Of a DNA stretch of 64,000 bases, positions 607-45,257 are shown piece by piece (the first letter of the stretch is position 1; every line of letters begins with the position of its first letter). The stretch comes from Deinococcales bacterium (lineage in GTDB: Bacteria > Deinococcota > Deinococci > Deinococcales > JAAFIG01), in assembly GCA_031414595.1 (NCBI GenBank), contig JANNVX010000014.1, positions 1-64,000 of the forward strand, read 5' to 3'. A program made the position numbers and the translations under genes. The notes under the pieces were generated by a model that saw only the letters and a list, made by a program, of their open reading frames with translations, was not told the DNA's origin and searched no databases.

Positions 607-893
607 ACCAAAAGTGTAACACCATCAAAACAGTATGGCAATTGTCTCAACAGTGCCGAGACAATCAAATTGTCGCTACAGTGTAGCAACAATCTTTTCA
701 TCTGGATAAAGCTCATAAAAACTTATGGCTCGAGTGAATTCATCAGAAAGACTCCGCGAAACCCCTGCCTGTCTTGACCCTACAGCAGCACCTTCGGGCT
801 TGGGTCGCTTTAGGCATGGGGAGGTAAGGAGTCCAGCCGTAGGCTGCAAACAGTGCCGAAGGTACTGCGAAAAGCCACTTAGCCGAACTCTGC

Positions 894-1280: not shown

Positions 1281-1282
1281 AC

Positions 1283-2263: not shown

Positions 2264-2370
2264 GATGGACTTAGTTTAACTCGATTTATGCAAAAGATTC
2301 TGTTGTTTTATTGCTGCTACGGCGTTACGGGGCTGTTTGAAGCTCAAGGTAAATCATTTGCATTCCCGCA

Positions 2371-2613
2371 TCAGAAAGTTTGGCGGTGTCCAAAGTCAAC
2401 CCCGAGCTTAGCAGCAAAAGCAAAATCATTCACGCCTAAACTTTTGGTTGCTTTGATGCCGCTCACACCAAGAAAACCCTCGAGCCGCCCTTGTGGGAGT
2501 ACGCCCGCAGTCCTTGAAACAAGTGGGATGGTATTTGAATTTGCAGGGACAAAACTGATAATGCCAACGATACTCGAGACCAATCCGAGTAAAACAACAG
2601 CTTTAGGGTTCAT
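2371..2613 (-). CDS. Small hypothetical exported/membrane protein
   Basis: AAGGAG RBS before the ATG at 2613; hydrophobic N-terminus. The longer ORF call runs through REP elements. Confidence 0.4.
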   Translation of the reverse strand: MNPKAVVLLGLVSSIVGIISFVPANSNTIPLVSRTAGVLPQGRLEGFLGVSGIKATKSLGVNDFAFAAKLGVDFGHRQTF

Positions 2614-2719
2614 TGCGCTCCTTGAACGGTTTATTTCTAAACCGTATAAAAATTTGGATGCCGCTCTGGGTTTGAAGTTCCCAGTGGAGTCACCCAAATT
2701 CTGAAACAGACCAAAAGCA

Positions 2720-2790
2720 GGGCGACCACAAGGGTCGCGCCCTACAAAAAACCACATCACCAGCGTAGGGGTGGGTCTTGTACCCACCCG
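2720..2790. repeat. Inverted pair of GTAG-type REP-like palindromes
   Basis: Minus strand GTAGGGCGCGACCCTTGTGGTCGCCC (2720-2745) and plus strand GTAGGGGTGGGTCTTGTACCCACCC (2765-2789). Confidence 0.65.
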
Positions 2791-2818
2791 CGTAAGAGAA
2801 GATTAATATGTAAGAAGT

Positions 2819-3430
2819 CTAATCTGTCACAGCCAGCCGAACTCCAAGCGCTGCAAAAATAAGCGCGAACGAACGACGAAGCCAAAAAAGAATTTTAGGC
2901 GATTGCAACACAAAATTTCTGACCGCACTTGCCAGAACACCGTAGACCATAAAAACAACCAAAGTAATCAGCATAAACACAGCACTGAGCAGCAAAAAAA
3001 TACCAATCGGAGAATTAGAATCTCGAGGAATAAAAAGCGGTAAAAAAGCCAAGAAGAAAATCGTTAATTTAGGATTGAGGATGTTCAGTAAAAATGCCCT
3101 AACTGCAATCTGCCAAGCGCTTTTGCTCGAGCCAGCCGAATTAAAGGTTAAGGCGTTCTGGTCGTGCCACATCTGCCAAGCCAGATAGAGCAAATACACC
3201 GCGCCAACAAATTTAAGCCCCTGAAAAACCACCGCACTAATATGCAGCACCAACGTTAGCCCCAGAATACTTGCCAGTAAATGCGGCAAAATACCAGCCG
3301 TACAACCAATGGCGGCAGCAATACTGGCACGCCAACCAAAAAAAATACCAGTCGAAATGGTGTAAATCGCACCCGTACCCGGAATTAGAACCACAATCAA
3401 CGAAGTCAGTAAAAACTCAGCATTCAACAT
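2819..3430 (-). CDS. LysE/RhtB family translocator
   Basis: PGTG, GAVYLLYLAW and NILNPK motifs; hydrophobic. Confidence 0.92.
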   Translation of the reverse strand: MLNAEFLLTSLIVVLIPGTGAIYTISTGIFFGWRASIAAAIGCTAGILPHLLASILGLTLVLHISAVVFQGLKFVGAVYLLYLAWQMWHDQNALTFNSAGSSKSAWQIAVRAFLLNILNPKLTIFFLAFLPLFIPRDSNSPIGIFLLLSAVFMLITLVVFMVYGVLASAVRNFVLQSPKILFWLRRSFALIFAALGVRLAVTD

Positions 3431-3466
3431 AAAAAGCCTCCTGCTCGAGCCTCGAGCCTAGAAAGG

Positions 3467-4318
3467 CTACTGTGATAAGCCGTAAGCGTCTTGTACGCTC
3501 TTGCGGTATTGAGCGGGCGTAACTGCCCAAAGTCGTTTGAACCAGCGCGTTAAATGGCTCTGGTCGCTAAAACCACAAGCCAGCGCAACTTCGGCAATAC
3601 CTTGCCCCTCGAGCAACAATTTCTTGGCGTTTCGTACCCGAACTTGACGTAAAAACGCATGAGGCGCAATGCCAATGGCTTTGGTAAAAACATGAACCAA
3701 ATGAAAACGATTTAAGCCAGTGATGTTAGAAAGCGCACTTAAAGAAATATCCGCCATAAAATTTTCCTCGAGAAACTGCTTTATTTGCGTCACGGCTCGA
3801 GGTTCACGCCCAAATTTCTGGGGTCGCAGCTTTGTATCTGCATAACGCCCAATAAAACGCGTCAGCACAGACTGCAACAAGGTTTCAGACTCGAGCAGCG
3901 AGGTTTCTGGATGCTCGAGCAACCGATGGAGGTGTAAAAAATCTTGGGCAATAAAATCATCTGTAATCACACCCGACTGAAAAAACGGGAGTTCTCGAGA
4001 AACCCCAGCTACGTCTGAGGCGATACTTTTGAGAAAACTTGGCTCGAGATAAAACATTCGGTAGCCCCAGCCCTCGAGTGTGGCTGGCTGCCCTGTGTGC
4101 GGTTCATCGGGAATGCACAAGTTAATCTGTCCTCGAGCCGCCACAATGTTCTCGCCACGGTAAAAGTAGCCAAGAGCGCCCGATTCAATCACACCAATTG
4201 CGTACTGCTCGTGCGTATGCAAAGGGAACGACTGCGTAAAGTCCTGACCACGCAGGAGTTCCAAGTTATGAAGTCTTGGAAAGTGCCAGATTTTAGAGAT
4301 GGGCTGGGCAAGTGGCAT
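3467..4318 (-). CDS. AraC family transcriptional regulator
   Basis: FPLHTHE cupin domain and C-terminal GFSDQSHLTRWFKR. Confidence 0.93.
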   Translation of the reverse strand: MPLAQPISKIWHFPRLHNLELLRGQDFTQSFPLHTHEQYAIGVIESGALGYFYRGENIVAARGQINLCIPDEPHTGQPATLEGWGYRMFYLEPSFLKSIASDVAGVSRELPFFQSGVITDDFIAQDFLHLHRLLEHPETSLLESETLLQSVLTRFIGRYADTKLRPQKFGREPRAVTQIKQFLEENFMADISLSALSNITGLNRFHLVHVFTKAIGIAPHAFLRQVRVRNAKKLLLEGQGIAEVALACGFSDQSHLTRWFKRLWAVTPAQYRKSVQDAYGLSQ

Positions 4319-4354
4319 TGCGGCAATGATACTAAAATTTTCTCGAGAAGAAAA

Positions 4355-4648
4355 TTAGCGCATGGCTGTTTTCAGATTTCCTCTTGAACCATGCACCACA
4401 GCAAGAATTTCCACATAGGCTTCTGAGGAAGAATAAATAATACGATAAGGACGCTCAAAAATTTCCCGACGGTGGTCGCCTAATTCTGGAACTTTATGTC
4501 CCATATCAGGAAAATCCCCTAGGGCATCTGCTGCTAAAACCAACCGATTGATGGTTTGACGTGCATATGTTTCAGATTGAGGCTCAAGGTAAGCGTAAAT
4601 CGTATCCAAATGCCCTAAAGCTGAAGCTGACCAAATAACTCGCATCAT
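4355..4648 (-). CDS. RelE/ParE family toxin
   Basis: VIWSASALGHL...FPDMG..VPE...YRIIY...ILAVVHGSR pattern. Confidence 0.88.
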   Translation of the reverse strand: MMRVIWSASALGHLDTIYAYLEPQSETYARQTINRLVLAADALGDFPDMGHKVPELGDHRREIFERPYRIIYSSSEAYVEILAVVHGSRGNLKTAMR

Positions 4649-4836
4649 TATTGTGGCGGCAACCCAAAACGCTGACGAACTTCTTGGGACGTAAAATGCC
4701 GTCCAGCATCAATATCTGCCTGACCAGCTTCGACGGCTTGATGTACATAAATGGCGTACTGCAAATCTTCCCAAGTTGCATCGTCAGGCAAATGCTCGAG
4801 CAAACGCTGGGCTTGTTCACGAATCAGGGTTTTCAT
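4648..4836 (-). CDS. Antitoxin partner of the RelE/ParE toxin
   Basis: LPDDATWEDLQYAIYV...GQADIDAGR pattern; directly upstream of the toxin. Confidence 0.8.
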   Translation of the reverse strand: MKTLIREQAQRLLEHLPDDATWEDLQYAIYVHQAVEAGQADIDAGRHFTSQEVRQRFGLPPQ

Positions 4837-4907
4837 GGTGAAAGGATACAGCTTGGGCTTAAAAGTAGCAAGAAAATGATGTGGCGCTAACACCATTCAT
4901 TCGTGAG

Positions 4908-5198
4908 TCAAACCCCGACCAACTCGAGCCTAACTTCACGCCCAAGCCGAGCCTCGAGTGTGATCAGCATTTCTAAGCTAAACTTATCGTGCTTACCACG
5001 CATTAAATCGGAAACTCGAGATTGTGCAATGCCAAGCTGTTGCACAGCTTGGGCTTGGGTTAATTGCTTGGCATTAATAAAACCACGTAAATCATTGATC
5101 AGTTTAGAGCGCAATTGCAAAATTGCAGCTTCAGCAGGGTCAAAACCCAAGTCTGTAAAAACATTTCCACTGGATTCTATAATTGGTTCTTGCATCAT
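4908..5198 (-). CDS. HigA-like XRE antitoxin
   Basis: SSGNVFTDLG...LTQAQA...QSRVSDLMRGK..KFSLE. Confidence 0.88.
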   Translation of the reverse strand: MMQEPIIESSGNVFTDLGFDPAEAAILQLRSKLINDLRGFINAKQLTQAQAVQQLGIAQSRVSDLMRGKHDKFSLEMLITLEARLGREVRLELVGV

Positions 5199-5512
5199 TG
5201 CCCTCCTATTTGGCGGTAACGCCGTCTTGCTAATTCAATGTCTTCTCGAGCCGTTTGCTGGGTTCTCTTTTGGAAAGCGTGCAGCACAAAAATAGCCATC
5301 TCGAGTTTTGCCACATAAATAATTCGCCATTCGCCAAAGACATGAATACGAATTTCACGCACACCTGAGCCAATGTCCGACATTGGTTTCCAGTCGCTAG
5401 GGTCAAAGCCCCGTTGTACAGCATCAAGTTCAAAACCAGCTTGTCGCCTTACTTCAGCAGGAAAATCCCGTAAGTCATCAAGGCTCGAGCCTACAAACTG
5501 GAGTGGCTTCAC
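5195..5512 (-). CDS. HigB/RelE-like (Gp49/DUF891) toxin
   Basis: GSSLDDLRDFP...DWKPM...GVREIR...VLHAFQKRTQQT; GTG start inferred. Confidence 0.88.
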   Translation of the reverse strand: MKPLQFVGSSLDDLRDFPAEVRRQAGFELDAVQRGFDPSDWKPMSDIGSGVREIRIHVFGEWRIIYVAKLEMAIFVLHAFQKRTQQTAREDIELARRRYRQIGGQ

Positions 5513-5636
5513 AAGCACCAATATATCAAAAAAAATTGATAAATACTCGGTATCAATTACTCGAGCATTCACGGCTTCTGGCAGATGGGTATTTTAGTGC
5601 CAAGTTACATCATCAGGCAAATGCTCGAGCAAGTAG

Positions 5637-10214: not shown

Positions 10215-10219
10215 CCTAT
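10215..10219 (+). repeat. Target-site duplication, left copy (CCTAT)
   Basis: CCTAT immediately precedes the TGT terminus; an identical copy follows the ACA terminus at 59039-59043. Confidence 0.93.
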
Positions 10220-10371
10220 TGTGAATTGCTCTTCACTTTGTCAGTAAAATGAACCATTTTTAGCTCATTTTGTCGTATTGAATGGCAGTGTTATCGTTTG
10301 CCACGTCATAGTTCAATTTTATTTTCGTTTACCGTGTCACTATTAAAATTGTGCTATCGTTTACCAAGTCA
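10220..10371 (+). repeat. tnsAB-proximal transposon end with TnsB-binding sites
   Basis: Terminus TGTGAATTGCTCTTCACTTTGTCAGTAA. 18-bp repeats TTATCGTTTGCCACGTCA (10291), TTTTCGTTTACCGTGTCA (10322), CTATCGTTTACCAAGTCA (10354), plus a degenerate copy near 10270. Confidence 0.9.
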
Positions 10372-10398
10372 ATACATCTAAATCTAAAAGGAGTAGAT

Positions 10399-12864
10399 AT
10401 GAGTAGTATATATGCAAATCCAAACGGTCTGACAAGTCGCAAGGGAAACGCCCTGCTGACTAGGTTTAAAACCACTTTACCATTTGAGAGTACCATCGAG
10501 GAACGGCTGATTCGCGTATTAGATGCCGACCTCGATATCGTTACGGTTAAACGTGCCGAAACTGTTAAGGTTTTTTCATTCGATGGATCTTCACATGAGT
10601 ACACTGCTGACTTTGAGGTTTCCTTAATCAATCAGCAGACTTATGTTCTCGAGTGTAAACCTCAAAACTTACTACACGATATACTCGTCGAGGATTTATC
10701 AAAATGGACTGCTCGAGCAATGCTTTTAAAGCAACAAGACAAACCTTTACACATCATTACTGATGATGATTTACCCGATTCGTTGATACAAAAATCCATT
10801 TCATATACACCATTTTTCAATACGTTTCCATATCCAGACGTTGAAAAAACAGCGATGGAATTTCTTCAAGAACGGGGCTATTTACCACTTTCAACCTTGC
10901 GCCTACATATTAGAAGTATTACTCAACGTTCTTTTCCAGAAATTGACTCCACGCTTTACGGTTTAATCGCTCGCAACGAGTTAATTGCAAATGAAAGCAA
11001 TTTTTCGCCAAATTGCTTAGTTGACCTACCTAATCGACATCTCGAGCCAACGCGCACGCCACTTGGCAAATTAGTGCAGGCTTTATTAATTGATTTACCA
11101 AAACCTACCCCGCGCCTAGAACCAAAAATGAATCCAGCTCTAATACTCGAGCAAAAGTTTTTAGCGACAGGGCGTGGGCAAAAGGCGTTAGAATTATTTT
11201 CCGTTTACAATAATCCGAATGTGCCAATCACAAAACAATTGGCAAAAGAGTTGACACAGAAAATCGGTGTCAATGCCCGAACTCTTTTTCGATTTCGACT
11301 TTCCCTTATCGAAGCAGGCGCACCAAATATCATTTTTACTGAACTGGTTCCGTTTTTGACAGGTGCCACACCAATACGCCCAAAACGTCAGGTGGAAGAT
11401 AAAGTCGCAACGATTATCGAGGAGTTCTGTTTAAAAAACTACTTTGTGCCAGTTGGTTCACCCACAAACCATCGAGCCAGTACGATGGCAGAATTGCATG
11501 AAATGATCAGAAAAGCCTGCCTTCAAAAAGAGCTATCACCACCTGCCTACACAACAGTCAAACGTTTTGTGGAAAAAATCATCAAACGAGATCCAATCAA
11601 GGCAACAAAGGCTCGTGATGGACAAGAAAAAGCCGATTCACTTGAGGCACGACAAGGCAAATTGATTGTGCTGCGGTACGGAGAAGTAATCGCCGTGGAT
11701 TGCTCTCCGTGCGATGTTTTTTTCCAAAAATCTAAAGCCGAACTGCATTTCAAAATCCATAGTCGAGGCAAAAACCAACGAAAAGAGAATGCAACTCGCG
11801 GCAATTTTGTGACTGTAGCAGATATAGCCACTGGTCAGGTTCTCCGTTCAGTCATTTTTGAAAGTGGCATCGGTGGTGCGGAAATCTTGGAAGTTTTACG
11901 TGATGTTTTTCTGCGTGATCAAAAGCTCTTTTCGCAAAACGATATTGTCAGTATTCCACAAGGATTTGGTCTACCTCAACGAATTCGTTTAGATAGCGGT
12001 TCAGAATTTACCAACAAACAAGTGGCTCGAGTTTTAGCACATTTAGGGATAGAGCGTGTAACACGCAATAGCTACACCAAACACTATGGTGGTAGAGAAG
12101 AACGAATTATTGGAATCCTCAGTCACAGTCATCATGTATTGGTAGGTACAACCATGAACACCATTGAAAAGCGCGGTGTTTATCAGGCACAGGCAAATGC
12201 TGTTTTAGATTTTGCAGACTTAAACCGATTTCACCAAAAAAACGTGGAACGTTATAATAATTTGCACGCACCACTGCACGAATACACCCGTCATCAACAC
12301 GCTCAACATTTGGTAGACAATGGTGTAACTGCATGGCGAATTCTTAGCCAATCACAACTTGACTATGTGACCAACCGAATGCACCCTGAAGAAGATCGCT
12401 TGACCATTCAAAAAGGAATCTCAATGTTTGGGCTTAAATACCAATCAGATGCGCTTAGACCACTCATTATTCGCCGTGCGAAATTGAATATTAGCTACAA
12501 CCCTGATGACATCTGTGTTGTTAATGCCATACATCCCGACACTGGAGAACGAATACCACTCACAGCAGAATTACCCGAAGGTTTTGAGCCACCAATTAGC
12601 AAAAAACTCTGGTATGAATATAGGCATCGGGTTAGAAAAGCGGCGCGTCAAGCTCAGGATGCAGTCGAGACACCTCAAGAAATTGTAGCAGATGTAATGG
12701 CGAAGAAAACGGAGCGAACTATTGAACAAAAAAAGAGTAAGTCAAGACATAGAAGTGTACAAACATCGCCTTCTCAAAGTAGGAAAATCGTTGAGACTGG
12801 CGCACGCACCATCCAATCGGCTGTTATTGAATTTTTAGACAATCCAGTCGAAATTGAAGAATGA
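10399..12864 (+). CDS. tnsAB: TnsA-TnsB fusion transposase
   Basis: N-terminal TnsA-like nuclease (FESTIE, YTADFEV, LECKP). DDE core AVDCS / RLDSGSEF / GREERIIG. Mu-type C-terminus GISMFGLKY...YNPDDI. AGGAG RBS before ATG 10399. Confidence 0.88.
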   Translation: MSSIYANPNGLTSRKGNALLTRFKTTLPFESTIEERLIRVLDADLDIVTVKRAETVKVFSFDGSSHEYTADFEVSLINQQTYVLECKPQNLLHDILVEDLSKWTARAMLLKQQDKPLHIITDDDLPDSLIQKSISYTPFFNTFPYPDVEKTAMEFLQERGYLPLSTLRLHIRSITQRSFPEIDSTLYGLIARNELIANESNFSPNCLVDLPNRHLEPTRTPLGKLVQALLIDLPKPTPRLEPKMNPALILEQKFLATGRGQKALELFSVYNNPNVPITKQLAKELTQKIGVNARTLFRFRLSLIEAGAPNIIFTELVPFLTGATPIRPKRQVEDKVATIIEEFCLKNYFVPVGSPTNHRASTMAELHEMIRKACLQKELSPPAYTTVKRFVEKIIKRDPIKATKARDGQEKADSLEARQGKLIVLRYGEVIAVDCSPCDVFFQKSKAELHFKIHSRGKNQRKENATRGNFVTVADIATGQVLRSVIFESGIGGAEILEVLRDVFLRDQKLFSQNDIVSIPQGFGLPQRIRLDSGSEFTNKQVARVLAHLGIERVTRNSYTKHYGGREERIIGILSHSHHVLVGTTMNTIEKRGVYQAQANAVLDFADLNRFHQKNVERYNNLHAPLHEYTRHQHAQHLVDNGVTAWRILSQSQLDYVTNRMHPEEDRLTIQKGISMFGLKYQSDALRPLIIRRAKLNISYNPDDICVVNAIHPDTGERIPLTAELPEGFEPPISKKLWYEYRHRVRKAARQAQDAVETPQEIVADVMAKKTERTIEQKKSKSRHRSVQTSPSQSRKIVETGARTIQSAVIEFLDNPVEIEE

Positions 12865-12892
12865 TCAAGTGGTCTCTGTAAAGGAGATGATT

Positions 12893-13681
12893 ATGACAAA
12901 CCAACGACATACCTACCTTAACAATCGTGAACGCCTTTGGCATCCAGAGACTTCTCGAGAAAATTTATTGAGTGAACTAGATGCAATGATTAGTGACCCA
13001 CCACGTCACAGAACCGTGAGTATAGCAATTCCAGGTGATGCAAATGATGGCAAAACACAAATCATTTCACAGTTTCTGAAACGACACCCGCCAACCAATG
13101 AAGGAGACTACACAAAAATACCTGCTATTGCAGTTGAAATGTCAGATATTTCTACAGTTCAACAGCTCAGTCGGCGTTTACTCGAGGAGTCAAAAGACCC
13201 CGACCCAACTTCCGGAACACATGACGAACGAATGGCACGTTTCGTAAAACGAGCCAAAAAAATCGGACTCAGAATGGTCTTCCTTGATGAGTTTCACGAT
13301 TGTGCTGACACAAGCGGCAAAGGTAAACCATTCCTGCGTCTCCTTAAAAGCCTGCTGTCAAAGCGTATTTTTGTAGTCCCCGTTGGAATGATCGAAGTAC
13401 GCGAAGTATTGAAAAAGGATCCGCAACTTGCTAATCGATTTAACTTTCATAAAGGGCAATTGGCAAAAGTTACAAATTTGGAAGTTATTAAAACCTTAAC
13501 GGAAAAAATAGCTGGCAATCCCATTGTAATCACTGATGCCGGATTGGAGTATATCCTTGATAAAACAAAGGGTACACTTGGAGATATATTAGATTTTGTC
13601 GAACACACCCTACGAAAATATAACAACCTCGAGCTAACTAGCTTGGAAAATCAGTATTTATTGATGCCATTCTCAAAGTAA
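12893..13681 (+). CDS. tnsC: TnsC/TniB AAA+ ATPase
   Basis: Walker A GDANDGKT and Walker B VFLDEFH; follows the transposase; AAGGAG RBS before ATG 12893. Confidence 0.9.
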   Translation: MTNQRHTYLNNRERLWHPETSRENLLSELDAMISDPPRHRTVSIAIPGDANDGKTQIISQFLKRHPPTNEGDYTKIPAIAVEMSDISTVQQLSRRLLEESKDPDPTSGTHDERMARFVKRAKKIGLRMVFLDEFHDCADTSGKGKPFLRLLKSLLSKRIFVVPVGMIEVREVLKKDPQLANRFNFHKGQLAKVTNLEVIKTLTEKIAGNPIVITDAGLEYILDKTKGTLGDILDFVEHTLRKYNNLELTSLENQYLLMPFSK

Positions 13682-13862: not shown

Positions 13863-14474
13863 ATGGCTTGGCTACTTGGAAGCACCATTACGCTTCGTAT
13901 TGGCGAAAACACCCGTATTTACACCGTTGCGGATGTTCCCGAAAGCGCACCAACTGGACACCTCGATTATCAAACACCACTCGGACAGGTGCTACTTGGC
14001 ACAAACATTGGTAAGATTGCAGTCTGGCAAAATGCCGCAGGAAAGTCGCTGCAAGCCACAGTGATCGCTGTGGAATCCTCGAGTTCGTTTGAGGCTGCGC
14101 CTTTGCATTATCACAGTGACGCAATCAAACAAAAATATGCTCTCGAGCAAGCTGAACATTGCCTTGTGGAATTTGGGCAAAGCCAAGATTTATGGAAACT
14201 AAGCCAAGCCAGCAGTTTTTTTCGTGATGCAAAACAACCCAAACGAGCTTTAGAAATCACTGAAGGAGTTGTTGGATCAACCCGCGCTTTACAATCAGCC
14301 TTGCTGACGACTCGAGCGGCGGCATACTTGGATTTGCATCATTCTCGAGAAGCCCAAAAACTTGTGCATCAAGCCGTGAAAATCTCAGGATGGACTTCGC
14401 AGCTTTACTCGGTTCAAGCCAATAAAGAGGAAGCCGCTCATTACGGGCGATTAGCAGAAGGCTTTCGGGGGTAG
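13863..14474 (+). CDS. GreA/GreB C-terminal-like domain fused to TPR-like helices
   Basis: YTVA...LDYQTPLGQVLLG...G resembles the GreA C-domain (ISxxSPLGxALLG); helical C-terminal half. Confidence 0.55.
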   Translation: MAWLLGSTITLRIGENTRIYTVADVPESAPTGHLDYQTPLGQVLLGTNIGKIAVWQNAAGKSLQATVIAVESSSSFEAAPLHYHSDAIKQKYALEQAEHCLVEFGQSQDLWKLSQASSFFRDAKQPKRALEITEGVVGSTRALQSALLTTRAAAYLDLHHSREAQKLVHQAVKISGWTSQLYSVQANKEEAAHYGRLAEGFRG

Positions 14475-14516
14475 GCTTTTACCTACAAAAACCATTTGTG
14501 CCTTAGAATTGCGGGA

Positions 14517-14990
14517 ATGGCACATTCTCCTGATGACTTATTTTCCCTTTTTGCTTCACCAGCACCAGTTTCTTTGGTTCAGACGTACACCGATGGCTCT
14601 TGTCTTGGCAATCCAGGTGTTGGTGGTTGGGCAGCCATTCTTGTTTCAGATGGTCAGGAACGAATACTGACTGGTGCAGATCCAGATACCACCAATAATC
14701 GAATGGAGTTTAAGGCATTACTCGAGGCAATTCGGGCTTTAGAGCAACCAAGTGCTGTGGCGGTTTGCACCGATTCAGAATTGCTGATTGGCTTACTTCA
14801 CAAAGGGTACAAACGGCGCAATCCAGAACTGAAAGCCCTATGTGCTGAAATTGAAATGATGGTGCAACACGGTGGACATCAGCTTGACTTTGATTGGGTA
14901 CGGGGTCATACGGGACACGAATTCAACGAGCGGGTTGATAAACTGGCGAAACAAGCCGCCCTTGAAGCACAAAGAAAGCGAGGCATGTGA
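14517..14990 (+). CDS. rnhA: Ribonuclease HI
   Basis: YTDGSCLGNPGVGGW, TTNNRME, TDS and WVRGHTGHEFNERVD motifs. Confidence 0.92.
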   Translation: MAHSPDDLFSLFASPAPVSLVQTYTDGSCLGNPGVGGWAAILVSDGQERILTGADPDTTNNRMEFKALLEAIRALEQPSAVAVCTDSELLIGLLHKGYKRRNPELKALCAEIEMMVQHGGHQLDFDWVRGHTGHEFNERVDKLAKQAALEAQRKRGM

Positions 14991-15550
14991 TTCCATCAGA
15001 GCAATTTGAACGGAATGCCGTGATGCTCGAGCAATTGCGGCAGTTTGATTGGCGGGAAGAATTTAAAGCCTTCTTGAAAATCACCCGTCAGCCACGTTTG
15101 ACATATTTGGATTTGAACGAACATGACTTTGCGGTTTTTATGGTCTTTGTTATGATTCGCGCTAATTCTGCTAAGCGCATCAAGCTCTGGCTGACTCGAG
15201 TTTGCAAGAGATGCAAGAAACGAGCTTATTCACGTTTTCCAGCTCGAGAATTTAACCTTCGGGCAGAAGAGCCTTGGGGTCATTACGGGTATCGGATTGT
15301 GCCAGATCTAATGGTGTACGATCAGAATGGAACTGTGGCTGTGTGTCTCGAGATTCATCGGACACACCGAATCAGTTTTGGTAAGCGCAGGCGCTTTTTA
15401 GAAATGGGAATGCGGTTTGTTGAACTACACTTTGAAGGTGTGCTGAAAGCTGCTTTGTGGTTTTTGGAAGGTAGGGAGAACATTGCTCTCAGCGTTGAGC
15501 ACGAATTACTGCTTGCTCCTGTTTGGTGCGGCAAATGCCGAAATAGGTAA
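14987..15550 (+). CDS. Hypothetical protein, possible PD-(D/E)xK (CoiA-like) nuclease with Cys pairs
   Basis: IVPDLMV...LEIHRTH motif; CKRC and CGKC pairs. Confidence 0.45.
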   Translation: MIPSEQFERNAVMLEQLRQFDWREEFKAFLKITRQPRLTYLDLNEHDFAVFMVFVMIRANSAKRIKLWLTRVCKRCKKRAYSRFPAREFNLRAEEPWGHYGYRIVPDLMVYDQNGTVAVCLEIHRTHRISFGKRRRFLEMGMRFVELHFEGVLKAALWFLEGRENIALSVEHELLLAPVWCGKCRNR

Positions 15551-15649: not shown

Positions 15650-18064
15650 CTAATTTAAGTATGGTCGCAGCTTTTTCAGTATTTGGCTCTCCGGATACTC
15701 TCTTAAAGTAATTTCCAACAACTTTTTGTAAGTTACCTTTGATCCAGATCGTATTTCTCGAAACGCCGACCTCCATTGTTCGGCATCAGTGTTGCCATGT
15801 GGCAAATCAGCGACGCGACCACCAGCCCGCTCCCAGAATTCCTTTAAGCGGTCAGGCACACTATCAATACACCACTGTTCAAAAACCTCAGTACGGTCAA
15901 TTTCTTCAACTGCATTGAGTGATCGGCTAAAAAACTGGAAAAATTTTTGGAGCGAAGTCAAAAGTTTAAAAATTGACTCAACAAATGTTGTAACAATGGG
16001 ACGAGAATCAGGTCTAAACTCATCACATAATCTCTGAGCTAAAGCCCATCGATTGCGTCTAACCATAACTCGACCAGTCGCTTTAAGAATACTTTCAGAC
16101 TTGCCTAGATTGCCACTTTGAGATATTGCGGCTTTTACAATTTTTTCGATATGGGCATCTTGGAGTAAGTCTGGCAGTGCCGTGACAACTCGAGTTGCAC
16201 CATCTAAGTTAAATTTTCCATCACTTACAAGTTCCAAAATTGTCTCGGACAGTTCTGTTTCAATGAATTCCCCAGATTCCCCTTGTCTCAGCCAATCATT
16301 GGCTGTGGTCATCAAGAAGCTTTTACGTGCAAGACTAGGCAACTTTTTCCAGACACTTGAACGATTGGGAAATGCCAATAAACTCGCATCAGATGTTGTT
16401 CCTAAACGCTCAAGAAGTTGGAGTGGAACTTGTAAATCATTCAACAATTCAGAAACTAGCAATGGCAATAAGCGCTTTGCTTGTCCACCCCAAGGATCTT
16501 TGGCTTTTAAACCGGCGATTGTCCAGATTTGGATGCCTGCCTCAGTAACCTCAAGAGCTTCCCATCCTGAATGGTCATTATTGAGATATGTTCCTGCGTG
16601 TTCCCAGACATCTCTTCGATCCATATTTTGTGCAGCACAAATCAATTCTCGAGTCCCCGCAATTAGCTGATATGCACGAACAATTCTTTCAGAAGCATCC
16701 AAAGGCGCATTTTGCAATAAATCCTGAAAACATTGTTCTGTTGGTGCTTTTTGCAAATGAATTGATGCAAACAACAGCCACCACTGACGATATTTCAAAT
16801 TCTCAATAAAAACATTGGGGAGTGTCTGATGGGCAATGGATGCAGCCAATTGTGTTTCCCAAGAATCCGCAACCAATTCAAAAAATGTAGTGCTGTTTTT
16901 GCTGCAAAGTCCAGCCCAAATAGCCTCGATAAGTTGAGGATTCCCTGACCGAAGTGCAGATTTTATTGCTGTTTGGATTGCGTAAATCCACCAAGATTGT
17001 GCCGTTCCACAGCGCGTGAACAAGTCAGACATGGATTGTACTTCATCTTGGATCAATTTAGAAGCTCGAGACTGAATGATATTTTGCAATGCAAATTGCT
17101 CAGTTAAGGGTATCAAACCGGCTACCCGTTTTAAGTCATCAATGGAAGCACCTACGAGTTGTTTTTGTAGAAATTCCCATAACTTGTACTGCTGCTCACA
17201 GACAAATTCAGCCTGAATTTCCAAGGTTATCAAATTTTCTAAAGCAGCAGCAGCGACATTAACGCTCCCTCTGCCTTCTTCAAGTTGCTTTAGAAGTAGA
17301 AACAGTATGCTCAGGGTATTCAAGGCATCCCATTTCCAAGCAGTCAAAGACTCGAGCCAAGGCAGAATAACAGGATTGCGATCCCCAGCCAGATGACGTA
17401 GTAATAAATCCTCTGCTTTAGGTACGATAAGTGAGTTTAGATTGTGCCAACGCGACTTTAGGCTATCTGGCACCAAGACTAATTTGGGGGTAAACCCAGA
17501 ATTGTGTAGTGCATCAGGATCAAAAATAGTACGAAATGAAAATTCCTCACGACCTTTTTGGGGTAAGGCATCCCAAAAATTCCAAATCTGAGGGATCAAA
17601 TTCAAATCCACCAAAATCACAGGGTTATTTTGTGATTGCACTATTGTGTATGAAAAAGCATAATCAGGCTCATCAACTTGCTCAGGGTAAGTATTTATAC
17701 CTGTTTTTGAAATGATTGTTGGGGACAGTGGTGTTGTCCAATTTTCATCTTCCAGAATCACCCATAAATCTCGAAGTTGTACTTGTGCTAAGTATTCAAT
17801 TTCTATTAAGACAGCGCGAGTGATGACACTTCCACGACGTGGAGCTTTATCATCTCGAGCCACTCGAAGTATCGAAAAAAAGGAAGTGTTTTTAACTTTG
17901 CTTCCAATGTAAAAAGGATCCCATTCAGGTATTTCAAAGCTGGCCCTCGGATAGTCTGAAATAGTCTCAAGCCACGCGATGGGTTTTGTGGTGGTTGAAC
18001 CAAGAAGAGCATGACCTACAGTGGGATGAATACCAAACAATGCTCGTTCAATTGGGAGGTTCAT
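15650..18064 (-). CDS. GAP1-N1-like protein with C-terminal EAD1 domain (GTPase-based conflict system)
   Basis: N-terminus ERALFG...GHALL...DKAPRRGSVITRAVLI; C-terminus FWERAGG.VADL...EQW...LLEITLREYP; operon context. Confidence 0.72.
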   Translation of the reverse strand: MNLPIERALFGIHPTVGHALLGSTTTKPIAWLETISDYPRASFEIPEWDPFYIGSKVKNTSFFSILRVARDDKAPRRGSVITRAVLIEIEYLAQVQLRDLWVILEDENWTTPLSPTIISKTGINTYPEQVDEPDYAFSYTIVQSQNNPVILVDLNLIPQIWNFWDALPQKGREEFSFRTIFDPDALHNSGFTPKLVLVPDSLKSRWHNLNSLIVPKAEDLLLRHLAGDRNPVILPWLESLTAWKWDALNTLSILFLLLKQLEEGRGSVNVAAAALENLITLEIQAEFVCEQQYKLWEFLQKQLVGASIDDLKRVAGLIPLTEQFALQNIIQSRASKLIQDEVQSMSDLFTRCGTAQSWWIYAIQTAIKSALRSGNPQLIEAIWAGLCSKNSTTFFELVADSWETQLAASIAHQTLPNVFIENLKYRQWWLLFASIHLQKAPTEQCFQDLLQNAPLDASERIVRAYQLIAGTRELICAAQNMDRRDVWEHAGTYLNNDHSGWEALEVTEAGIQIWTIAGLKAKDPWGGQAKRLLPLLVSELLNDLQVPLQLLERLGTTSDASLLAFPNRSSVWKKLPSLARKSFLMTTANDWLRQGESGEFIETELSETILELVSDGKFNLDGATRVVTALPDLLQDAHIEKIVKAAISQSGNLGKSESILKATGRVMVRRNRWALAQRLCDEFRPDSRPIVTTFVESIFKLLTSLQKFFQFFSRSLNAVEEIDRTEVFEQWCIDSVPDRLKEFWERAGGRVADLPHGNTDAEQWRSAFREIRSGSKVTYKKLLEITLREYPESQILKKLRPYLN

Positions 18065-18912
18065 GTCTCTCCAAACAACCAGTCAATTGGCAGTGTCAAA
18101 TCGCTTTTTTGCTCTCCGTTTGGCAGCACAAGAAAACCGGATTTCTCTGCGCCAGCTTCTCGAAAAGTATGTTGGAAATTTGGATCATCAAGTGAACCCC
18201 CTTGCGACGATAAACCATACACACGCATTGCACTATCTGCCCAGACTGTACGGATAAACTGCTCGAGCAATGGGCAGAGTTGCTTGAAATAGAATTCTGG
18301 AGTCAATTCAGTATTGACTTCATCAAAACAGGACAACATAATTGCCAATCGAGGTGAGGTTGTTCCTATTGGAGCAAATCCAGCACGTACCCACCACCAC
18401 ATTTGCAGTAGTTCAATCATTTCAATCTGTGACGATAATCTGCGTAAATTCACATTATCTGGTGCGTTGATTTCCGCTTGAGGCTTTGGGTTTTTCATCT
18501 CTTTTGCCACAGGAGGAGCATCCATTGTGGTCGTGGGTTCATTTATGGCACTTGGACGAATAAAAAGCATCCAAGCCGAGGACTCTTGAAATCCAGAAAT
18601 CCAGTTTCCTTCAATAGCTCGGTCACGAATCATTCGAGTTAATTGCTCACCATCATAATCAGGCAGTACAAGATCTATGGATTGACCATGACGATTCAAC
18701 AAAGGCAGTGTCATAGAATCATATGCACTGGTGGTACGTGGCGGTTTTTCACCGCGTTCATAGGCTTCAAGCGCCATTTGGAATAACTTTAAGCTTTCAG
18801 GCTGTCCCCTGAATTTTAGGCTGCTTTTTTGTGCAAGAATTCGCCCATAGACTTGGGTGCCATAACCTGTTTTCCCTGACTGTGAATATCCCATCAGCAA
18901 TAATTGACTCAT
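18061..18912 (-). CDS. TRAFAC-clade double-GTPase family protein
   Basis: GYSQSGKT, PPRT, DYDGE and LSCFDE motifs. Confidence 0.78.
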   Translation of the reverse strand: MSQLLLMGYSQSGKTGYGTQVYGRILAQKSSLKFRGQPESLKLFQMALEAYERGEKPPRTTSAYDSMTLPLLNRHGQSIDLVLPDYDGEQLTRMIRDRAIEGNWISGFQESSAWMLFIRPSAINEPTTTMDAPPVAKEMKNPKPQAEINAPDNVNLRRLSSQIEMIELLQMWWWVRAGFAPIGTTSPRLAIMLSCFDEVNTELTPEFYFKQLCPLLEQFIRTVWADSAMRVYGLSSQGGSLDDPNFQHTFREAGAEKSGFLVLPNGEQKSDLTLPIDWLFGET

Positions 18913-19887
18913 TTATGTACCTCGAGTGAACCAACGAGATAAGTTCTCTGCTCGGGAATTAGCAGCTTCACTAACATCGTTAAAAGCGGTGACAGCAGGC
19001 TTAACTTGACTGATTAAAACTTCGGAAAACCACTCGAGAACATCTGTGCCTTGTGCCTCGTGACCATTCGTTGCAATTGTGTGGAATGATTTCGCATCTG
19101 GCAATCCCTCTTCAAGTGCCGTTTTTACTGCTTGCAATTTTGGGTTAGAAGTAGTCTCGTCTGCCTTAGTCCAGATAATTTGTGTGGGACGAAGTTTCAA
19201 TTCGGTAAAACGATTGAGTAGAGTCAGGGTTTCACGAGCAGCGGTATTTCGTTCTAACGGATCTGATAATCTTCGCCCATCCACCACAAAACACAAAGAA
19301 TCTGCGTGTCTTAATATCCAAGCAGCCCCTTCAGCAGAAGGTTGATTGGGTTCTATATTCCATGCTCGAAACCATTCGCCAGGTACATCGGTGATAAGAA
19401 CGTCTTGCCAATTTGCTTCTCGAGTTGCAAATCTCAGATGAAGCAGTCCTGGTTCACGACCTTCACCAGTTGTTCTGGGTGGATATGTGGGTTTTTCATC
19501 GCCTTTCCATGCTAAAGAACGACTTATCAAATCCCACCCATACAAGGTAAACGACCCAGCAAATGCCCATTGGGGTATTTCCCTGCCCTTGGTCAAAAGT
19601 AAGTACAAAGAAGCCAGTAAACTGGTTTTTCCTGCATCTGCAAAACCCACTAACCCAAGTAAAATGGGTCGCTGTTGTCCAGCAATGAATTGGGCTGCCA
19701 ATGGTGTGAACGAATTCCCACTCCATGCTGGACGCAATTTCTCTGTATCAATGCTTAGATCACTCGAGTCATGCGAAGATGTGCTCTCTCCTTGGAAATG
19801 CTCGCATGCTTCAGGGGACTCGCCTGTATGAAAGCAACCCGTTTTTGGGGCATTACAAGTCTCAACTGAACAAACAATACGACTCAT
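18913..19887 (-). CDS. TRAFAC-clade double-GTPase family protein with N-terminal Cys cluster
   Basis: GFADAGKTS, PPRT, DVPGEWF and WTKAD motifs; ATGA overlap with the upstream gene. Confidence 0.8.
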   Translation of the reverse strand: MSRIVCSVETCNAPKTGCFHTGESPEACEHFQGESTSSHDSSDLSIDTEKLRPAWSGNSFTPLAAQFIAGQQRPILLGLVGFADAGKTSLLASLYLLLTKGREIPQWAFAGSFTLYGWDLISRSLAWKGDEKPTYPPRTTGEGREPGLLHLRFATREANWQDVLITDVPGEWFRAWNIEPNQPSAEGAAWILRHADSLCFVVDGRRLSDPLERNTAARETLTLLNRFTELKLRPTQIIWTKADETTSNPKLQAVKTALEEGLPDAKSFHTIATNGHEAQGTDVLEWFSEVLISQVKPAVTAFNDVSEAANSRAENLSRWFTRGT

Positions 19888-21107
19888 ACTTGAGTTCCCA
19901 ACGACAAAGTACGCAAGTACCAAACAGCAAATTCCATCGGAGAAAGCGGCAGTTTTCCTGAAAATCCAAAGTGCTGACCAATCACCTTATCCGAAATACT
20001 GTTCTTTACACCCGAGAGTTCTGCTAAATGCCTTGGCAGTACCCTAAGCGGAGTTGAGGCATTAAGTATCACTTGCCCGAGAACTTGCTCGCCCATTATC
20101 TCCTTAATACCTTCTACGAGGGTACTTGATTCTTCGGCTTTTTCACCAAAAGCGGTAAAAATAGCTTCCTCGAGAACAGCAATCGCTTCTGGGGAAACCG
20201 GGTATGAAATCATTTCATGCAAATCAACAGCCATAATCGCTGCTGCTGACCACACTGAGAGCGTCCTATAACGGCGTTTAAGGTTGGGCGAAAATCGAGT
20301 TTGAAGCCACCACAATACATTGAGCTTTTCTTTGATATTTTCGTTTGAAGTCTTGATAAAAGAAGCATCAATCACTGGAATCTTTATGGATTGAAGCTGT
20401 TCATCAAGTTCGGTTGCGATGCTTTGAAAAGAAGATTGGATAGTTTCTGCAATTCCAGATGCAGTTGCTTTTGCCCACTGTGGAAAGATGATATTTTGAC
20501 CGTAACTTTGATTATTTGAAATCGGATTGCCGTTCTGAAATGCCGCAGCAAAACCTGTATCCAACGTATCAGTTTTGTCAGATAAGTCTATTTCGGGCAT
20601 TTTGGAAAATGTAATTTGGCTCGTTGGACTTTCAGAAGTCAATTCACAGGCTTTTTTATAAGCACATTGAAATTCTAGCAATAATTTTTCCAGTACACCA
20701 ATTTCTTTAGGGTTGCCAAGAAATTTAAGTGGATTAATGACTGCCAAATACAAAATTACCTTATTAGAATCTGAAACCCGACGCAAAGCATATAAAAGCA
20801 TATAGCGAAAAAGTGCCACAGGATCGTTTTTATGCTGACTGCTGAGAGACCTCCATTTTGACAATAAACACTCTTTCACCAATCTAATAGGCTCAGCGCT
20901 GGCATTCACTTTAGAATCTATTGCTGCCAATCCACTAGAAACCAGTAAACTCACATCGGACTCGAGTTGCTCGAGAATATCTAAAGCTGCTTGGTTCAGA
21001 TATTCAAGTTTTTCGTCATCTAAAGTGTAGTCTGCGGTAATCACTTGCAACAATTCGTGATCTAAGGTATCCATTTGTGCATCTGTGATTTCTTTTGCTT
21101 TAGACAT
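19884..21107 (-). CDS. GTPase-associated system all-helical protein (GASH-like)
   Basis: All-helical 407 aa with LNVLWWLQTRFSP..RRYR motif; lies upstream of the two GTPases. Confidence 0.65.
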   Translation of the reverse strand: MSKAKEITDAQMDTLDHELLQVITADYTLDDEKLEYLNQAALDILEQLESDVSLLVSSGLAAIDSKVNASAEPIRLVKECLLSKWRSLSSQHKNDPVALFRYMLLYALRRVSDSNKVILYLAVINPLKFLGNPKEIGVLEKLLLEFQCAYKKACELTSESPTSQITFSKMPEIDLSDKTDTLDTGFAAAFQNGNPISNNQSYGQNIIFPQWAKATASGIAETIQSSFQSIATELDEQLQSIKIPVIDASFIKTSNENIKEKLNVLWWLQTRFSPNLKRRYRTLSVWSAAAIMAVDLHEMISYPVSPEAIAVLEEAIFTAFGEKAEESSTLVEGIKEIMGEQVLGQVILNASTPLRVLPRHLAELSGVKNSISDKVIGQHFGFSGKLPLSPMEFAVWYLRTLSLGTQV

Positions 21108-21156
21108 ATTAGCGGATATTTTATAACCAAATCCAAAAAATCACAAATCATCAATT

Positions 21157-22326
21157 TTAGTCGTTTAGAGCAGCAATAATGCGATTTATGGATTCAAAAC
21201 GCTTACGCGGAAACCAGATTGGACGGATGTGATGCTCACTTAGGAAGCGCAGACGTTTGGCATTTTGAGCTTTTTCCACTTCTTCCAATATCGCAAAATG
21301 GATGCTTCCATCATCAATGGACTTTACACTTTCATGTAGTACACGCATGGTACGGTCTTGTGCAAGGCTACAGCCAATGAAAATAAGAGTTCGTGAACGA
21401 AACAAAGTCTGCAATAAGGAAGGTATCTGCAAACCAAAATCAACCTCGTCATGCCCGTAAACTTTTTCGTACTCTTGCTTGGTTAGAACACGAGTATTTC
21501 GTTCATCCCAACTTCCGTGAATTTTGACTAGCCCACGTCCGCCAGATTGAATTAATCTCCCAAGTCTATCAGGCTGTGCGCCTTCAATCACATTCACAAT
21601 AGGCATATTCATCTGATTTGCCGATGTCTCCAAAACCCGATCAAAATTGGTGGTAATTATTGAACGTTTTCCAAGTTTTACAATTTCTCTGGGTAATCCT
21701 TGAATTTCAACTTTTTCAAGATGATGGTCACCATAGGCAGATTCGACGATTTGTCTAAACTGAAAAGGTGTTGCGATTTGCTCGAGATGTTTAGCAGCCC
21801 CTTCATAATCATCGCCACTTAGTAAATTTTCTATTTCGATTAAGCAATCATGCTTTGCTGCTTGTGTCTTGAGAAAATTTGTCCATTGAGGCATTTTGTA
21901 TGGGACTGATATTCCAGCTCCTACAAATGGAGTCAATAAATCCCTGCGTGATGGTTCAAAGAGTTGCCGAATGGTATCTGCATTATCGGCAAAGTCAATC
22001 AGGTCTTGGAGTTCATCGAGACCTTGATTTGTGGGTTTTGAAATTGTATTGGTTTCTTGTTCCATAAATTTGAGAAACCGCGTTTCATGCGGGTAGTCTA
22101 ACAATGCCTCCCGAACGAGATTTGGTGCCGATGATATTTTGCCATTTGCGGCTTCGCGCCACAAAACTCGCCAAACTGTGCGTATATTTCCTGCTTGGGT
22201 TGGCATGTCTGCAGGACTACCACCAGATCGTCGCCATAACTCGATGATGTCGGAAGGTATCGTATAACGTTCTGCGAGTGCTTCAATCATGGCTTCGTCA
22301 CTATTTGCAATAGACATTATGAACAA
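21157..22326 (-). CDS. EAD1-SIR2 effector (putative NADase)
   Basis: N-terminal EAD1-like LWRRSGGSPADM...W..LW...ALLDYP. SIR2 motifs PFVGAGIS, ITTNFD, KIHGS, FIGCSL.D. Confidence 0.85.
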   Translation of the reverse strand: MFIMSIANSDEAMIEALAERYTIPSDIIELWRRSGGSPADMPTQAGNIRTVWRVLWREAANGKISSAPNLVREALLDYPHETRFLKFMEQETNTISKPTNQGLDELQDLIDFADNADTIRQLFEPSRRDLLTPFVGAGISVPYKMPQWTNFLKTQAAKHDCLIEIENLLSGDDYEGAAKHLEQIATPFQFRQIVESAYGDHHLEKVEIQGLPREIVKLGKRSIITTNFDRVLETSANQMNMPIVNVIEGAQPDRLGRLIQSGGRGLVKIHGSWDERNTRVLTKQEYEKVYGHDEVDFGLQIPSLLQTLFRSRTLIFIGCSLAQDRTMRVLHESVKSIDDGSIHFAILEEVEKAQNAKRLRFLSEHHIRPIWFPRKRFESINRIIAALND

Positions 22327-41453: not shown

Positions 41454-41466
41454 GTTGGAGTGAATT

Positions 41467-43557: not shown

Positions 43558-43576
43558 GTGCAACCACGGAGGTTAT

Positions 43577-45249: not shown

Positions 45250-45257
45250 GGAATAAT

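Follow-up and report, generated by a model that had tools for sequence, protein, structure and literature searches.

Introduction

CRISPR-associated transposons (CASTs) reflect the repeated co-option of CRISPR systems by transposons and are of interest as tools for the insertion of large DNA without double-strand breaks. Among the described systems, the type I-B2 PmcCAST and the type I-D McCAST carry TnsA and TnsB naturally joined in a single polypeptide. Here, an element with the same arrangement is described from a window of 64,000 nucleotides of a Deinococcales bacterium (GenBank assembly GCA_031414595.1, contig JANNVX010000014.1, positions 1 to 64,000 of the forward strand; all coordinates refer to this window). 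Its region 10399-13681, extending from the tnsAB start to the tnsC stop and comprising these two co-directional genes, most probably encodes the core machinery of a 48.8-kb Tn7-like CAST, in which a type I-C Cascade has been set upon an independently fused TnsAB and a short TnsC.

PmcCAST and McCAST share with this element the domain order of the fusion, the placement of tnsAB-tnsC and of tniQ-cas genes plus a small CRISPR at opposite ends, and the association with a tRNA gene. They differ in their Cascade, which is of type I-B or I-D, whereas that of the present element is of type I-C and has no Cas6. In the cyanobacterial elements insertion is guided by TnsD to a position about 29 bp downstream of tRNA-Leu (PMC9881144, available text), whereas the present element lies upstream of a tRNA-Met gene, to whose 5′ part it was apparently guided by CRISPR RNA (crRNA), and no TnsD was found among the open reading frames (ORFs) scanned. 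PmcTnsC comprises at least 383 residues (bioRxiv 10.64898/2026.05.29.728539, available portion), compared with 262 amino acids (aa) for the TnsC reported here.

The I-F3 CASTs (Tn6677/VchCAST and PseCAST) have tnsA, tnsB and tnsC on the left and tniQ-cas-CRISPR on the right beside the att site, as has this element. Their right end is proximal to the target, which is also the case here. Homing by an atypical repeat-spacer unit is a further common feature, according to the accessible part of the I-F3 literature. They differ in that TnsA and TnsB are separate proteins (the "PseTnsAB" of the PDB is an artificial fusion), in their I-F Cascade with Cas6 and a Cas8/5 fusion, and in their att sites. 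The Tn5053/Tn402 and V-K elements resemble the present one in their short TniB-type ATPase and in a TnsB part that here has the size of a complete TniA; they differ in having no TnsA, and in replicative movement with a resolvase, from this element with its fused TnsA.

Type I-C CASTs were found in the literature searched, which did not extend to subscription papers, only in Rybarski et al. 2021 (bioRxiv 10.1101/2021.08.16.456562), who reported nine non-redundant metagenomic Tn7-like elements with Cas5, Cas7 and Cas8c and, as in the present case, without Cas3 or Cas1/2. In the available text of that report, these elements have TniQ beside TnsABC, TnsB and TnsC close to those of Tn7, no CRISPR array or homing spacer, and no tRNA gene or att site nearby, and no TnsA-TnsB fusion is mentioned for them. 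The accessible portion of Hu et al. 2024 likewise describes putative I-C CASTs as having no arrays, and that of Benler et al. 2021 places some Deinococcus-Thermus elements in the Tn5053/V-K clade and lists no I-C system.

TnsA-like part of TnsAB

The tnsAB ORF (10351-12864, plus strand) gives 837 aa when read from GTG and 821 aa when read from the ATG at 10399, which is preceded by AAAGGAG; protein database entry P0001 is exactly the 821-aa form. The gene (10399-12864, plus strand) was annotated as a TnsA-TnsB fusion by Pfam, family alignment, profiles and comparison with relatives. Pfam returned three collinear matches, all below the gathering score (Tn7_TnsA-like_N, residues 76-138 of the 837-aa form, E 0.003; rve, E 0.0011; Mu-transpos_C, E 0.0018), and the assignment therefore rests on fold, family profile and motifs.

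The TnsA-like part (approximately residues 1-215; 10399-11043, plus strand) is predicted from a model and from Foldseek to consist of a PD-(D/E)xK nuclease followed by a helical/winged-helix-like domain. The model of residues 1-250, computed with a 21-row alignment, had a predicted local distance difference test score (pLDDT) of 90.4 and a predicted template modelling score (pTM) of 0.83, and its N-terminal 215-230 residues formed the TnsA-fold portion. Against the PDB, exactly four Foldseek matches were obtained at E ≤ 0.001, the next one having E 4e-3: three Tn7 TnsA chains (1t0f_B, 1t0f_A and 1f1z_A; E 1e-8 to 4e-8, 227 columns, template modelling (TM) score 0.44) and the TnsAB chain 9bw1_M of PmcCAST (E 8e-8, TMq 0.58) from the transpososome structure 9BW1 (bioRxiv 10.64898/2026.05.29.728539, available portion). 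The moderate TM score to Tn7 TnsA was attributed to a different orientation of the two subdomains in the model.

The PD-(D/E)xK pattern reads YTADF ... ECKP, with E30, D71, E85 and K87 as candidate catalytic residues. In an alignment of the protein with six relatives retrieved by word search (alignment A1; 45-61% identical, 799-905 aa), E30, E34, D71, E85, K87, D434, D439, D532, E567 and E568 were invariant, and the fused architecture was present in all six of these relatives as well as at 3/3 genome loci. In a wider set of 21 rows (alignment A2), D71 and (E/D)85-x-K87 were kept in 17, the protein studied here included; the other four (P0009, P0011, P0016 and P0019) are still fused, yet at least one TnsA catalytic residue has been lost from each; they are possibly natural switches to replicative transposition. 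According to the model, the N-terminus of TnsAB is thus a TnsA-type PD-(D/E)xK nuclease domain with its catalytic residues intact. The original prediction, made from the sequence letters, had proposed a single ORF of about 821 aa carrying both TnsA nuclease motifs and a DDE triad; ORF, motifs and fold all agree with it, and the motifs it had cited (EYTADFEV...LECKP, DPPRHRTVSIAIPGDANDGKT, FLKRHPP and KIPAIAV) are all present in the translation.

TnsB-like part of TnsAB

The TnsB-like part (approximately residues 255-821; 11161-12864, plus strand) was delimited by Pfam rve and Mu-transpos_C and by profile alignment. These C-terminal 570 residues form a predicted DDE/Mu-type TnsB, containing a DNA-binding region, a DDE core of RNase-H fold (D434, D532 and E567/E568), a Mu-type C-terminal domain and a conserved C-terminal tail, in which F812 and P816 are invariant in alignment A1. 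The tail might act as a TnsC-binding hook; a predicted complex of tail residues 765-821 with TnsC (alignment A3), computed without control runs, had a score of 0.00 and speaks neither for nor against binding.

A phmmer search of the PDB with the single TnsAB sequence returned no match at E ≤ 1, although the PmcCAST chain 9bw1_M was among the sequences searched. The C-terminal half of the family profile matched PseCAST TnsB (positions 523-808, E 1.4e-11, 46 bits), the best solved relative of this part, and in the profile alignment D532 and the EER motif were aligned with the catalytic D and E of PseTnsB; in the same comparison with the PseCAST TnsAB fusion, the TnsA part was aligned collinearly, at a non-significant score. 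The profile scored the PmcCAST TnsAB chain at 20 bits (E 1.1e-3) and found no Tn7 TnsB chain in the PDB at E ≤ 10.

TnsC

The tnsC gene (12893-13681, plus strand), a 262-aa TniB-type AAA+ ATPase by Pfam, PDB profile and fold model, lies in an ORF (12854-13681) that gives 275 aa from TTG; the database form P0157 has 262 aa and begins with MTNQRH. Pfam TniB was matched at E 2.5e-31 (109 bits, cut-off 22.4), and the Walker A (GDANDGKT) and Walker B (FLDEFHD) motifs are both intact. The TnsC family is small, with five relatives of 23-64% identity, which are 262-296 aa long except for two rows of 192 and 216 aa; as full-length relatives are of this size, the present tnsC is not truncated. In the closest relative (locus L001, a Deinococcota metagenome-assembled genome (MAG), positions 11389-12191), tnsC is found as two overlapping ORFs of 194 and 126 aa, with a database protein of 192 aa, which is likely a frameshift or an assembly error.

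In PDB searches with the TnsC profile, the best match was VchTnsC of I-F3 (9e-18, nearly full length), followed by ShTnsC of V-K (7e-15), PseTnsC (2e-5) and Tn7 TnsC (5e-4, core only); PmcTnsC was not among the 33 sequences at E ≤ 1. The TnsC model (pLDDT 81) had as its top Foldseek matches ShTnsC (7plh first), VchTnsC, Tn7 TnsC, I-B TnsC and PmcTnsC. An ATPase of about 262 aa with a TniB-like N-terminus had been predicted, and both the Pfam match and the family lengths bear this out. The view of it as a minimal TniB-type TnsC holds; the accompanying view, by which short ATPases of this type belong to TnsA-less elements only, does not, in that I-F systems pair TnsA with such a TnsC (I-F TnsC chains in the PDB are about 310-330 aa long, and the PseCAST entries list both TnsA and TnsC).

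Family and phylogeny of the transposase

In a scan of reference genomes, 3 of 31 pattern matches encoded TnsAB relatives, all of them in Deinococcota: two Deinococcota/Deinococcales MAGs and Deinococcus marmoris DSM 12784, with 61, 47 and 41% identity. In D. marmoris, tnsAB-tnsC is followed directly by a gene for a 435-aa TniQ, which is 21% identical to the TniQ of the present element, and there are no cas genes within 10 kb downstream. A profile search of a library of representative proteins gave 2482 proteins at E ≤ 1e-3 and 29 at E ≤ 1e-30, the top matches among the library proteins listed being Mu-transpos_C/rve proteins. Fourteen representatives scored at least 409 bits, and all were fused except P0020 (643 aa); below them came fragments (155-309 bits) and then unfused transposases of 480-650 aa (at most 152 bits), those of 540-650 aa being aligned to TnsAB residues of approximately 270-800. 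Among 3478 plasmid records matched by tblastn with TnsAB, none covered at least 80% of the protein, that is, no fused relative was found in the plasmid collection; the best relative there was part of a tniA-tniB-tniQ module (28% identity) without an annotated TnsA.

Phylogenetic trees were built on the TnsB part. Of 159 sub-profile matches, 132 were retained after coverage filtering, which removed P0109 and other incomplete rows, and PmcCAST-type sequences were not included; FastTree was run on the 132 rows, and IQ-TREE (quick, mixture model) on 57. In both trees, 18 fused rows and P0020 were grouped with support of 99/98, the unfused P0024, P0028 and P0029 joined this fused family at 100, and the remaining rows, including Tn402/Tn5053 TniA, Acinetobacter TniA and the fusions P0055 and P0070, were split off at 100. 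The family thus stands apart from Tn402/Tn5053 TniA, with a long branch of its own. An approximately unbiased (AU) test on 28 rows (LG+G4) rejected a single clade of all TnsA-fused rows (p 5e-6).

Pfam TnsA_N was matched above the cut-off in three further natural TnsA-TnsB fusions, P0055 (951 aa), P0109 (900 aa) and P0070 (706 aa). P0055 and P0109 were considered as cyanobacterial I-B2/I-D fusions and rejected as such, being nearer to I-F3 TnsB (139-152 bits) than to PmcCAST TnsAB (46-55 bits), and P0070 was grouped with P0055 in both trees. These data suggest three or more origins of the TnsA-TnsB fusion.

TnsAB lies outside the cyanobacterial clade, since there was no phmmer match to 9bw1_M and a profile score of 20 bits, whereas members of that clade are more than 50% identical to one another (Hsieh and Peters 2022; PMC9881144, available text); the nearest unfused transposase reached 152 bits with the same profile. 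Judged from these scores and trees, the transposase family is small, apart from the cyanobacterial TnsAB clade, and has unfused proteins as its nearest relatives. A distinct transposase lineage had been postulated in the original prediction, and the PDB scores, which speak against nesting inside the I-B2/I-D clade, and the trees, in which the fused family stands beside unfused neighbours, lend it support. The related idea of an independent capture of Cascade is favoured by a Cascade of type I-C and not I-B or I-D, and the D. marmoris relative without Cascade is consistent with a separate capture.

TniQ and Cascade genes

The tniQ gene (53839-54798, plus strand) encodes a short form of 319 aa, identified by Pfam TniQ (E 4.5e-16, 60.2 bits, cut-off 27) and by the PADLOC model for CAS-I-F-associated TniQ (E 3.9e-17), with weak matches to TnsD and TniQ chains of the PDB. 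It is followed on the same strand by cas5c (54795-55529; Pfam Cas_Cas5d; NCBIfam Cas5c 114 bits, cut-off 85), cas8c (Csd1; 55526-57343; Pfam Cas_Csd1 195.7 bits; PADLOC Cas8c E 4.9e-56) and cas7c (Csd2; 57270-58295; Pfam Cas_Cas7 269.9 bits; NCBIfam Csd2 277 bits, cut-off 182). The four reading frames overlap, the tniQ stop lying over the cas5c start. The TTG start listed for cas7c overlaps cas8c by 74 nucleotides (nt); as the family match covers the protein from residue 24-27 onwards, the true start may be later.

No family match to Cas3, Cas1, Cas2, Cas4 or Cas6 was obtained in the ORFs of the element that were scanned, ORFs of fewer than 100 aa being not systematically covered, and tniQ was the only TniQ-family ORF among them, with no large TnsD-type TniQ. 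By its gene content (Cas5c, Cas8c and Cas7c, without Cas6), the Cascade is of type I-C. Effector cas genes lie within the element, linked to tniQ and without interference nuclease or adaptation genes, which is the CAST layout.

Ends of the element and target-site duplication

The element spans 10220-59038 (48,819 bp), with tnsAB and tnsC at the left end. Its termini, TGTGAATT... on the left and ...AATTCACA on the right, mirror each other (TGT...ACA type), and a 5-bp duplication, CCTAT, lies directly outside the left (10215-10219) and the right (59039-59043) terminus. A motif scan revealed a 22-bp end motif with core ACGGTAAACGATA in four copies on the left, counting the divergent terminal one, and three on the right, and no copy with fewer than two mismatches elsewhere in the 64-kb window. 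The left end (10220-10372, plus strand) consists of the terminal TGTGAATT site and three internal sites, whose core matches (10292-10304, 10323-10335 and 10355-10367) are spaced by 31-32 bp; the right end (58888-59038, minus strand) contains sites at 58888-58909, 58970-58991 and 59010-59031 and the terminus AATTCACA. These repeated sites are presumed to be bound by TnsB. The same left-end layout, a terminal site, a gap and three sites 31-33 bp apart, was seen in the relatives at loci L001 and L002. The G+C content is 0.433 in the element, 0.47-0.48 in its flanks and 0.446 in the contig of the closest relative. With TnsA, a DDE TnsB, TnsC, TniQ, ends and a 5-bp duplication all present, the element is Tn7-like. 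No resolvase family was found among its scanned ORFs.

CRISPR array, guide and tRNA-Met target

A repeat search located a mini CRISPR array (58467-58574, plus strand) of two 37-nt repeats (58467-58503 and 58538-58574) and one 34-nt spacer (58504-58537), for which no match was found in the collections of phages and plasmids. In folding, the typical repeats gave a stem-loop with an unpaired GCUUGAAAC tail after it. A promoter-like sequence, TTGACT-18-TACATT (58434-58463), lies just before the first repeat; the number of such sequences in this region was at the level of shuffles (3 versus 2.3).

At a distance of 175 bp beyond the array, repeat search and guide match placed an atypical repeat (58750-58786), 75% identical over an extended 61-nt unit, and a homing guide starting at 58787 (together 58750-58820, plus strand). 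The 22 nt directly 3′ of this repeat correspond to the minus strand of a tRNA-Met gene (59086-59162, plus strand) at 18 of 22 positions. The target so matched (59086-59110, minus strand) comprises a protospacer at 59086-59107, in the 5′ part of the tRNA gene, and a 5′-CTC-3′ protospacer-adjacent motif (PAM) at 59108-59110. With the first 24 bases of the guide, at least 18 matches were found only at the tRNA-Met site, apart from the guide itself, on both strands of the 64-kb window, and by our arithmetic about 0.004 matches of 18/22 are expected in 128 kb of random sequence. The mismatches fall on guide positions 6, 12, 18 and 19. In type I Cascades, every sixth base of the guide is flipped out, and three of the four mismatches are on the flip-out positions 6, 12 and 18, for which the chance was calculated as 19/7315 = 0.0026. 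In two systems, CTC is reported to work as a PAM for type I-C interference (PMC5602111, available text), and short atypical homing guides are known in I-F3c and I-B4 CASTs (bioRxiv 10.1101/2021.08.16.456562, available text).

The PAM-distal side of the protospacer faces the right end of the element. The insertion lies 47 bp upstream of the tRNA-Met 5′ end (right terminus at 59038, protospacer from 59086), and the CCTAT duplication is at 64-68 bp, counted from the PAM-proximal base, and 30 bp past the end of a 34-nt protospacer. Two candidate features nearby were rejected: a degenerate repeat after the guide (about 58826) as a source of a 3′ hairpin, the fold of 58821-58880 being no better than that of shuffles, and a tRNA-Met promoter (TTGCCA-N17-TAATCT) between insertion site and tRNA, which was spotted by eye and not called by the promoter scan.

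Proposed mechanism

In the mechanism proposed here, Cas5c would process the CRISPR transcript, and the Cas3-less type I-C Cascade would bind the tRNA-Met protospacer flanked by CTC. At the PAM-distal end, TniQ would recruit an oligomer of the short TnsC, which in turn would recruit and activate end-bound TnsAB; the TnsB part would cut the 3′ strands and join them to the target, so that the element would be inserted with its right end towards the target and with the near edge of the duplication 64 bp from the PAM-proximal protospacer base. Movement would be by cut-and-paste through the fused TnsA nuclease, judged by its motifs only. The covalent fusion would bring TnsA to the complex via TnsB, so that TnsC could do without the long C-terminal extension with which Tn7 TnsC binds TnsA.

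Several points weigh against this account. Transposition activity is a prediction from sequence. All three Pfam matches of TnsAB are under the gathering score, the TM score of 0.44 to Tn7 TnsA is accompanied by a root-mean-square deviation of about 8 Å, and Cas8c scored 152 bits with NCBIfam Cas8c, under the cut-off of 218.65. The guide pairs over 22 nt only and then diverges, and there is no convincing downstream repeat to give the guide RNA a 3′ hairpin. One family representative, P0020, is unfused; the group compared in the AU test was chosen after tree inspection, and the trees contain no PmcCAST-type sequences. Finally, the TnsA catalytic residues are gone in 4/21 rows, and nuclease activity is thus not family-wide.

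Alternative explanations

The main rival left is that the fused TnsA part is silent or poorly active and that the element moves replicatively, forming cointegrates as do the TnsA-less V-K CASTs and PmcCAST. This is unlikely; among the points in its favour is one that also weighs against cut-and-paste movement: PmcCAST TnsAB keeps its nuclease domain and is nevertheless reported to give cointegrates (PMC9881144, available text). The four rows without catalytic residues suggest partly relaxed selection, the nearest neighbours in the trees are unfused, and the best plasmid relative has no annotated TnsA. The residues D71 and (E/D)85-x-K87, on the other hand, are kept in the present protein and in 16 other rows of 21, E30, D71, E85 and K87 are invariant in alignment A1, and in McCAST, of related architecture, the nuclease is active, with 0/150 cointegrates for the wild type versus 149/150 for D106A (PMC9881144, available text).

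That the element is one of the metagenomic I-C CASTs of Rybarski et al. 2021, and hence nothing new, is improbable. The reported elements agree with it in being Tn7-like with Cas5, Cas7 and Cas8c, and the two were set apart by the published descriptions and not by sequence. In the available text of the report, however, array, self-targeting spacer, tRNA and att site are absent, whereas the present element has an array, a homing guide and a tRNA-Met gene 47 bp from its right end; tniQ lies 40 kb from tnsAB-tnsC, within the cas operon, and not beside TnsABC; and the proteins are not close to those of Tn7, as seen from the TnsAB profile, with no Tn7 TnsB at E ≤ 10, and from the TnsC scores (Tn7 TnsC 5e-4 versus VchTnsC 9e-18).

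It is very improbable that the Cascade genes are passengers or decayed defence cargo, with a site picked by TniQ on its own or by chance and a guide that is a leftover tRNA fragment. Defence cargo and partial sets of CRISPR-Cas genes are frequent in Tn7-like elements (PMC8649781, available text), and the guide match is short. Against this, tniQ and cas5c overlap, stop on start, neither Cas3 nor adaptation genes were found in the scanned ORFs, the tRNA-matching sequence begins exactly at the 3′ end of the repeat, the mismatches show the 6/12/18 pattern, and the PAM is a functional I-C PAM; moreover, TniQ has 319 aa and no long C-terminal DNA-binding extension, whereas TnsD-like proteins exceed 450 aa (PMC9881144, available text). 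Ordinary membership of the cyanobacterial I-B2/I-D TnsAB clade, suggested by the domain order, the Foldseek match to PmcCAST TnsAB and the tRNA association, is scarcely credible in view of the phmmer and profile results given above, the lack of a PmcTnsC match to the TnsC profile, the lack of a large TnsD-type TniQ in the scanned ORFs, an insertion upstream of the tRNA 5′ end and not about 29 bp past a 3′ end, and a Cascade of type I-C.

Implications

The combination of a fused TnsAB, a type I-C CAST and a tRNA-Met guide was not found in the literature searched, where supplementary tables may list such elements. The chances are about even that this element is an intact founding member of a new CAST family, in which a I-C Cascade was captured by a small Tn7-like lineage with genome carriers in Deinococcota; in such a family, the TnsA-TniA-like fusion would be separate from the I-B2/I-D clade and from the fusions nearer to I-F3, and six proteins would act with a 22-nt tRNA-Met guide whose mismatches fall at flipped-out positions. 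If the proposed account is true, the element would be an RNA-guided integrase, compact and acting by cut-and-paste, of a kind hitherto uncharacterised, for which TnsAB, a 262-aa TnsC, TniQ, Cas5c, Cas8c and Cas7c suffice. The machinery is small, with six genes, both strand cleavages assigned to one polypeptide and a 262-aa ATPase. The TnsA-TnsB fusion seems to have arisen more than once, and a TniB-sized TnsC can serve a TnsA-containing transposase. The relatives that have lost TnsA catalytic residues provide a natural series between cut-and-paste and replicative designs. Intact ends, duplication, readable guide and target are contained in one window, which makes type I-C-guided transposition directly testable; the published I-C CASTs were, in the text available, described without arrays and attachment sites.

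Cargo and flanking genes

Directly after tnsC (13863-15550, plus strand) are a gene with a GreA/GreB C-terminal-like domain (sub-threshold), an RNase HI homologue and a gene for a 187-aa protein without a family match. They are followed on the minus strand (15650-22326) by a five-gene GTPase-centred conflict system, consisting of a GAP1-N1/EAD1 protein, DO-GTPase1, DO-GTPase2, GASH and a SIR2-EAD1 effector; the effector also matches the PADLOC LmuA and ThsA models, and the other four genes have no PADLOC model. At 22689-26647 (minus strand), there is an overlap between the gene for a 940-aa STAND-like NTPase with TPR repeats and the end of that for a 379-aa beta-lactamase-family/penicillin-binding-like protein. 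The plus-strand region 27187-38786 encodes a 3646-aa RHS-repeat protein, close to whose C-terminus lies a pretoxin-HINT domain; after it comes a gene of the SUKH/SMI1 family, and by its domains the pair resembles the layout of a polymorphic toxin and its immunity protein. Further inside the element (40263-49043, plus strand), genes for an Ig-domain protein, an S8 subtilase, a secretin and a Chlamydia-PMP-type repeat protein form a block that looks like a secretion/adhesin module carried as cargo.

The stretch just upstream of tniQ (49141-53272) contains an Xre/MbcA-type antitoxin gene (49141-49584) beside which no toxin was recognised, an IS3-type HTH_Tnp_1 ORF (51083-51436) and five ORFs (49725-50189, 50299-50865, 51433-51903, 51900-52619 and 52652-53272) that had no Pfam, NCBIfam or PADLOC match. 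Outside the element, the left flank (119-5572) contains genes of toxin-antitoxin type, among them a PIN-domain ORF, a ParE toxin gene (4355-4648) preceded by a small partner and a Gp49/HigB-like gene (5195-5572). An exonuclease III gene is also present in a flank; its relatives reach 74-88% identity, those of beta/gammaproteobacteria about 54%. In the closest relative, L001, the cargo opens with a TnsA-like/RE endonuclease ORF, a PLD-SNF2 helicase, a methyltransferase and an AAA_21/DUF4276 pair.

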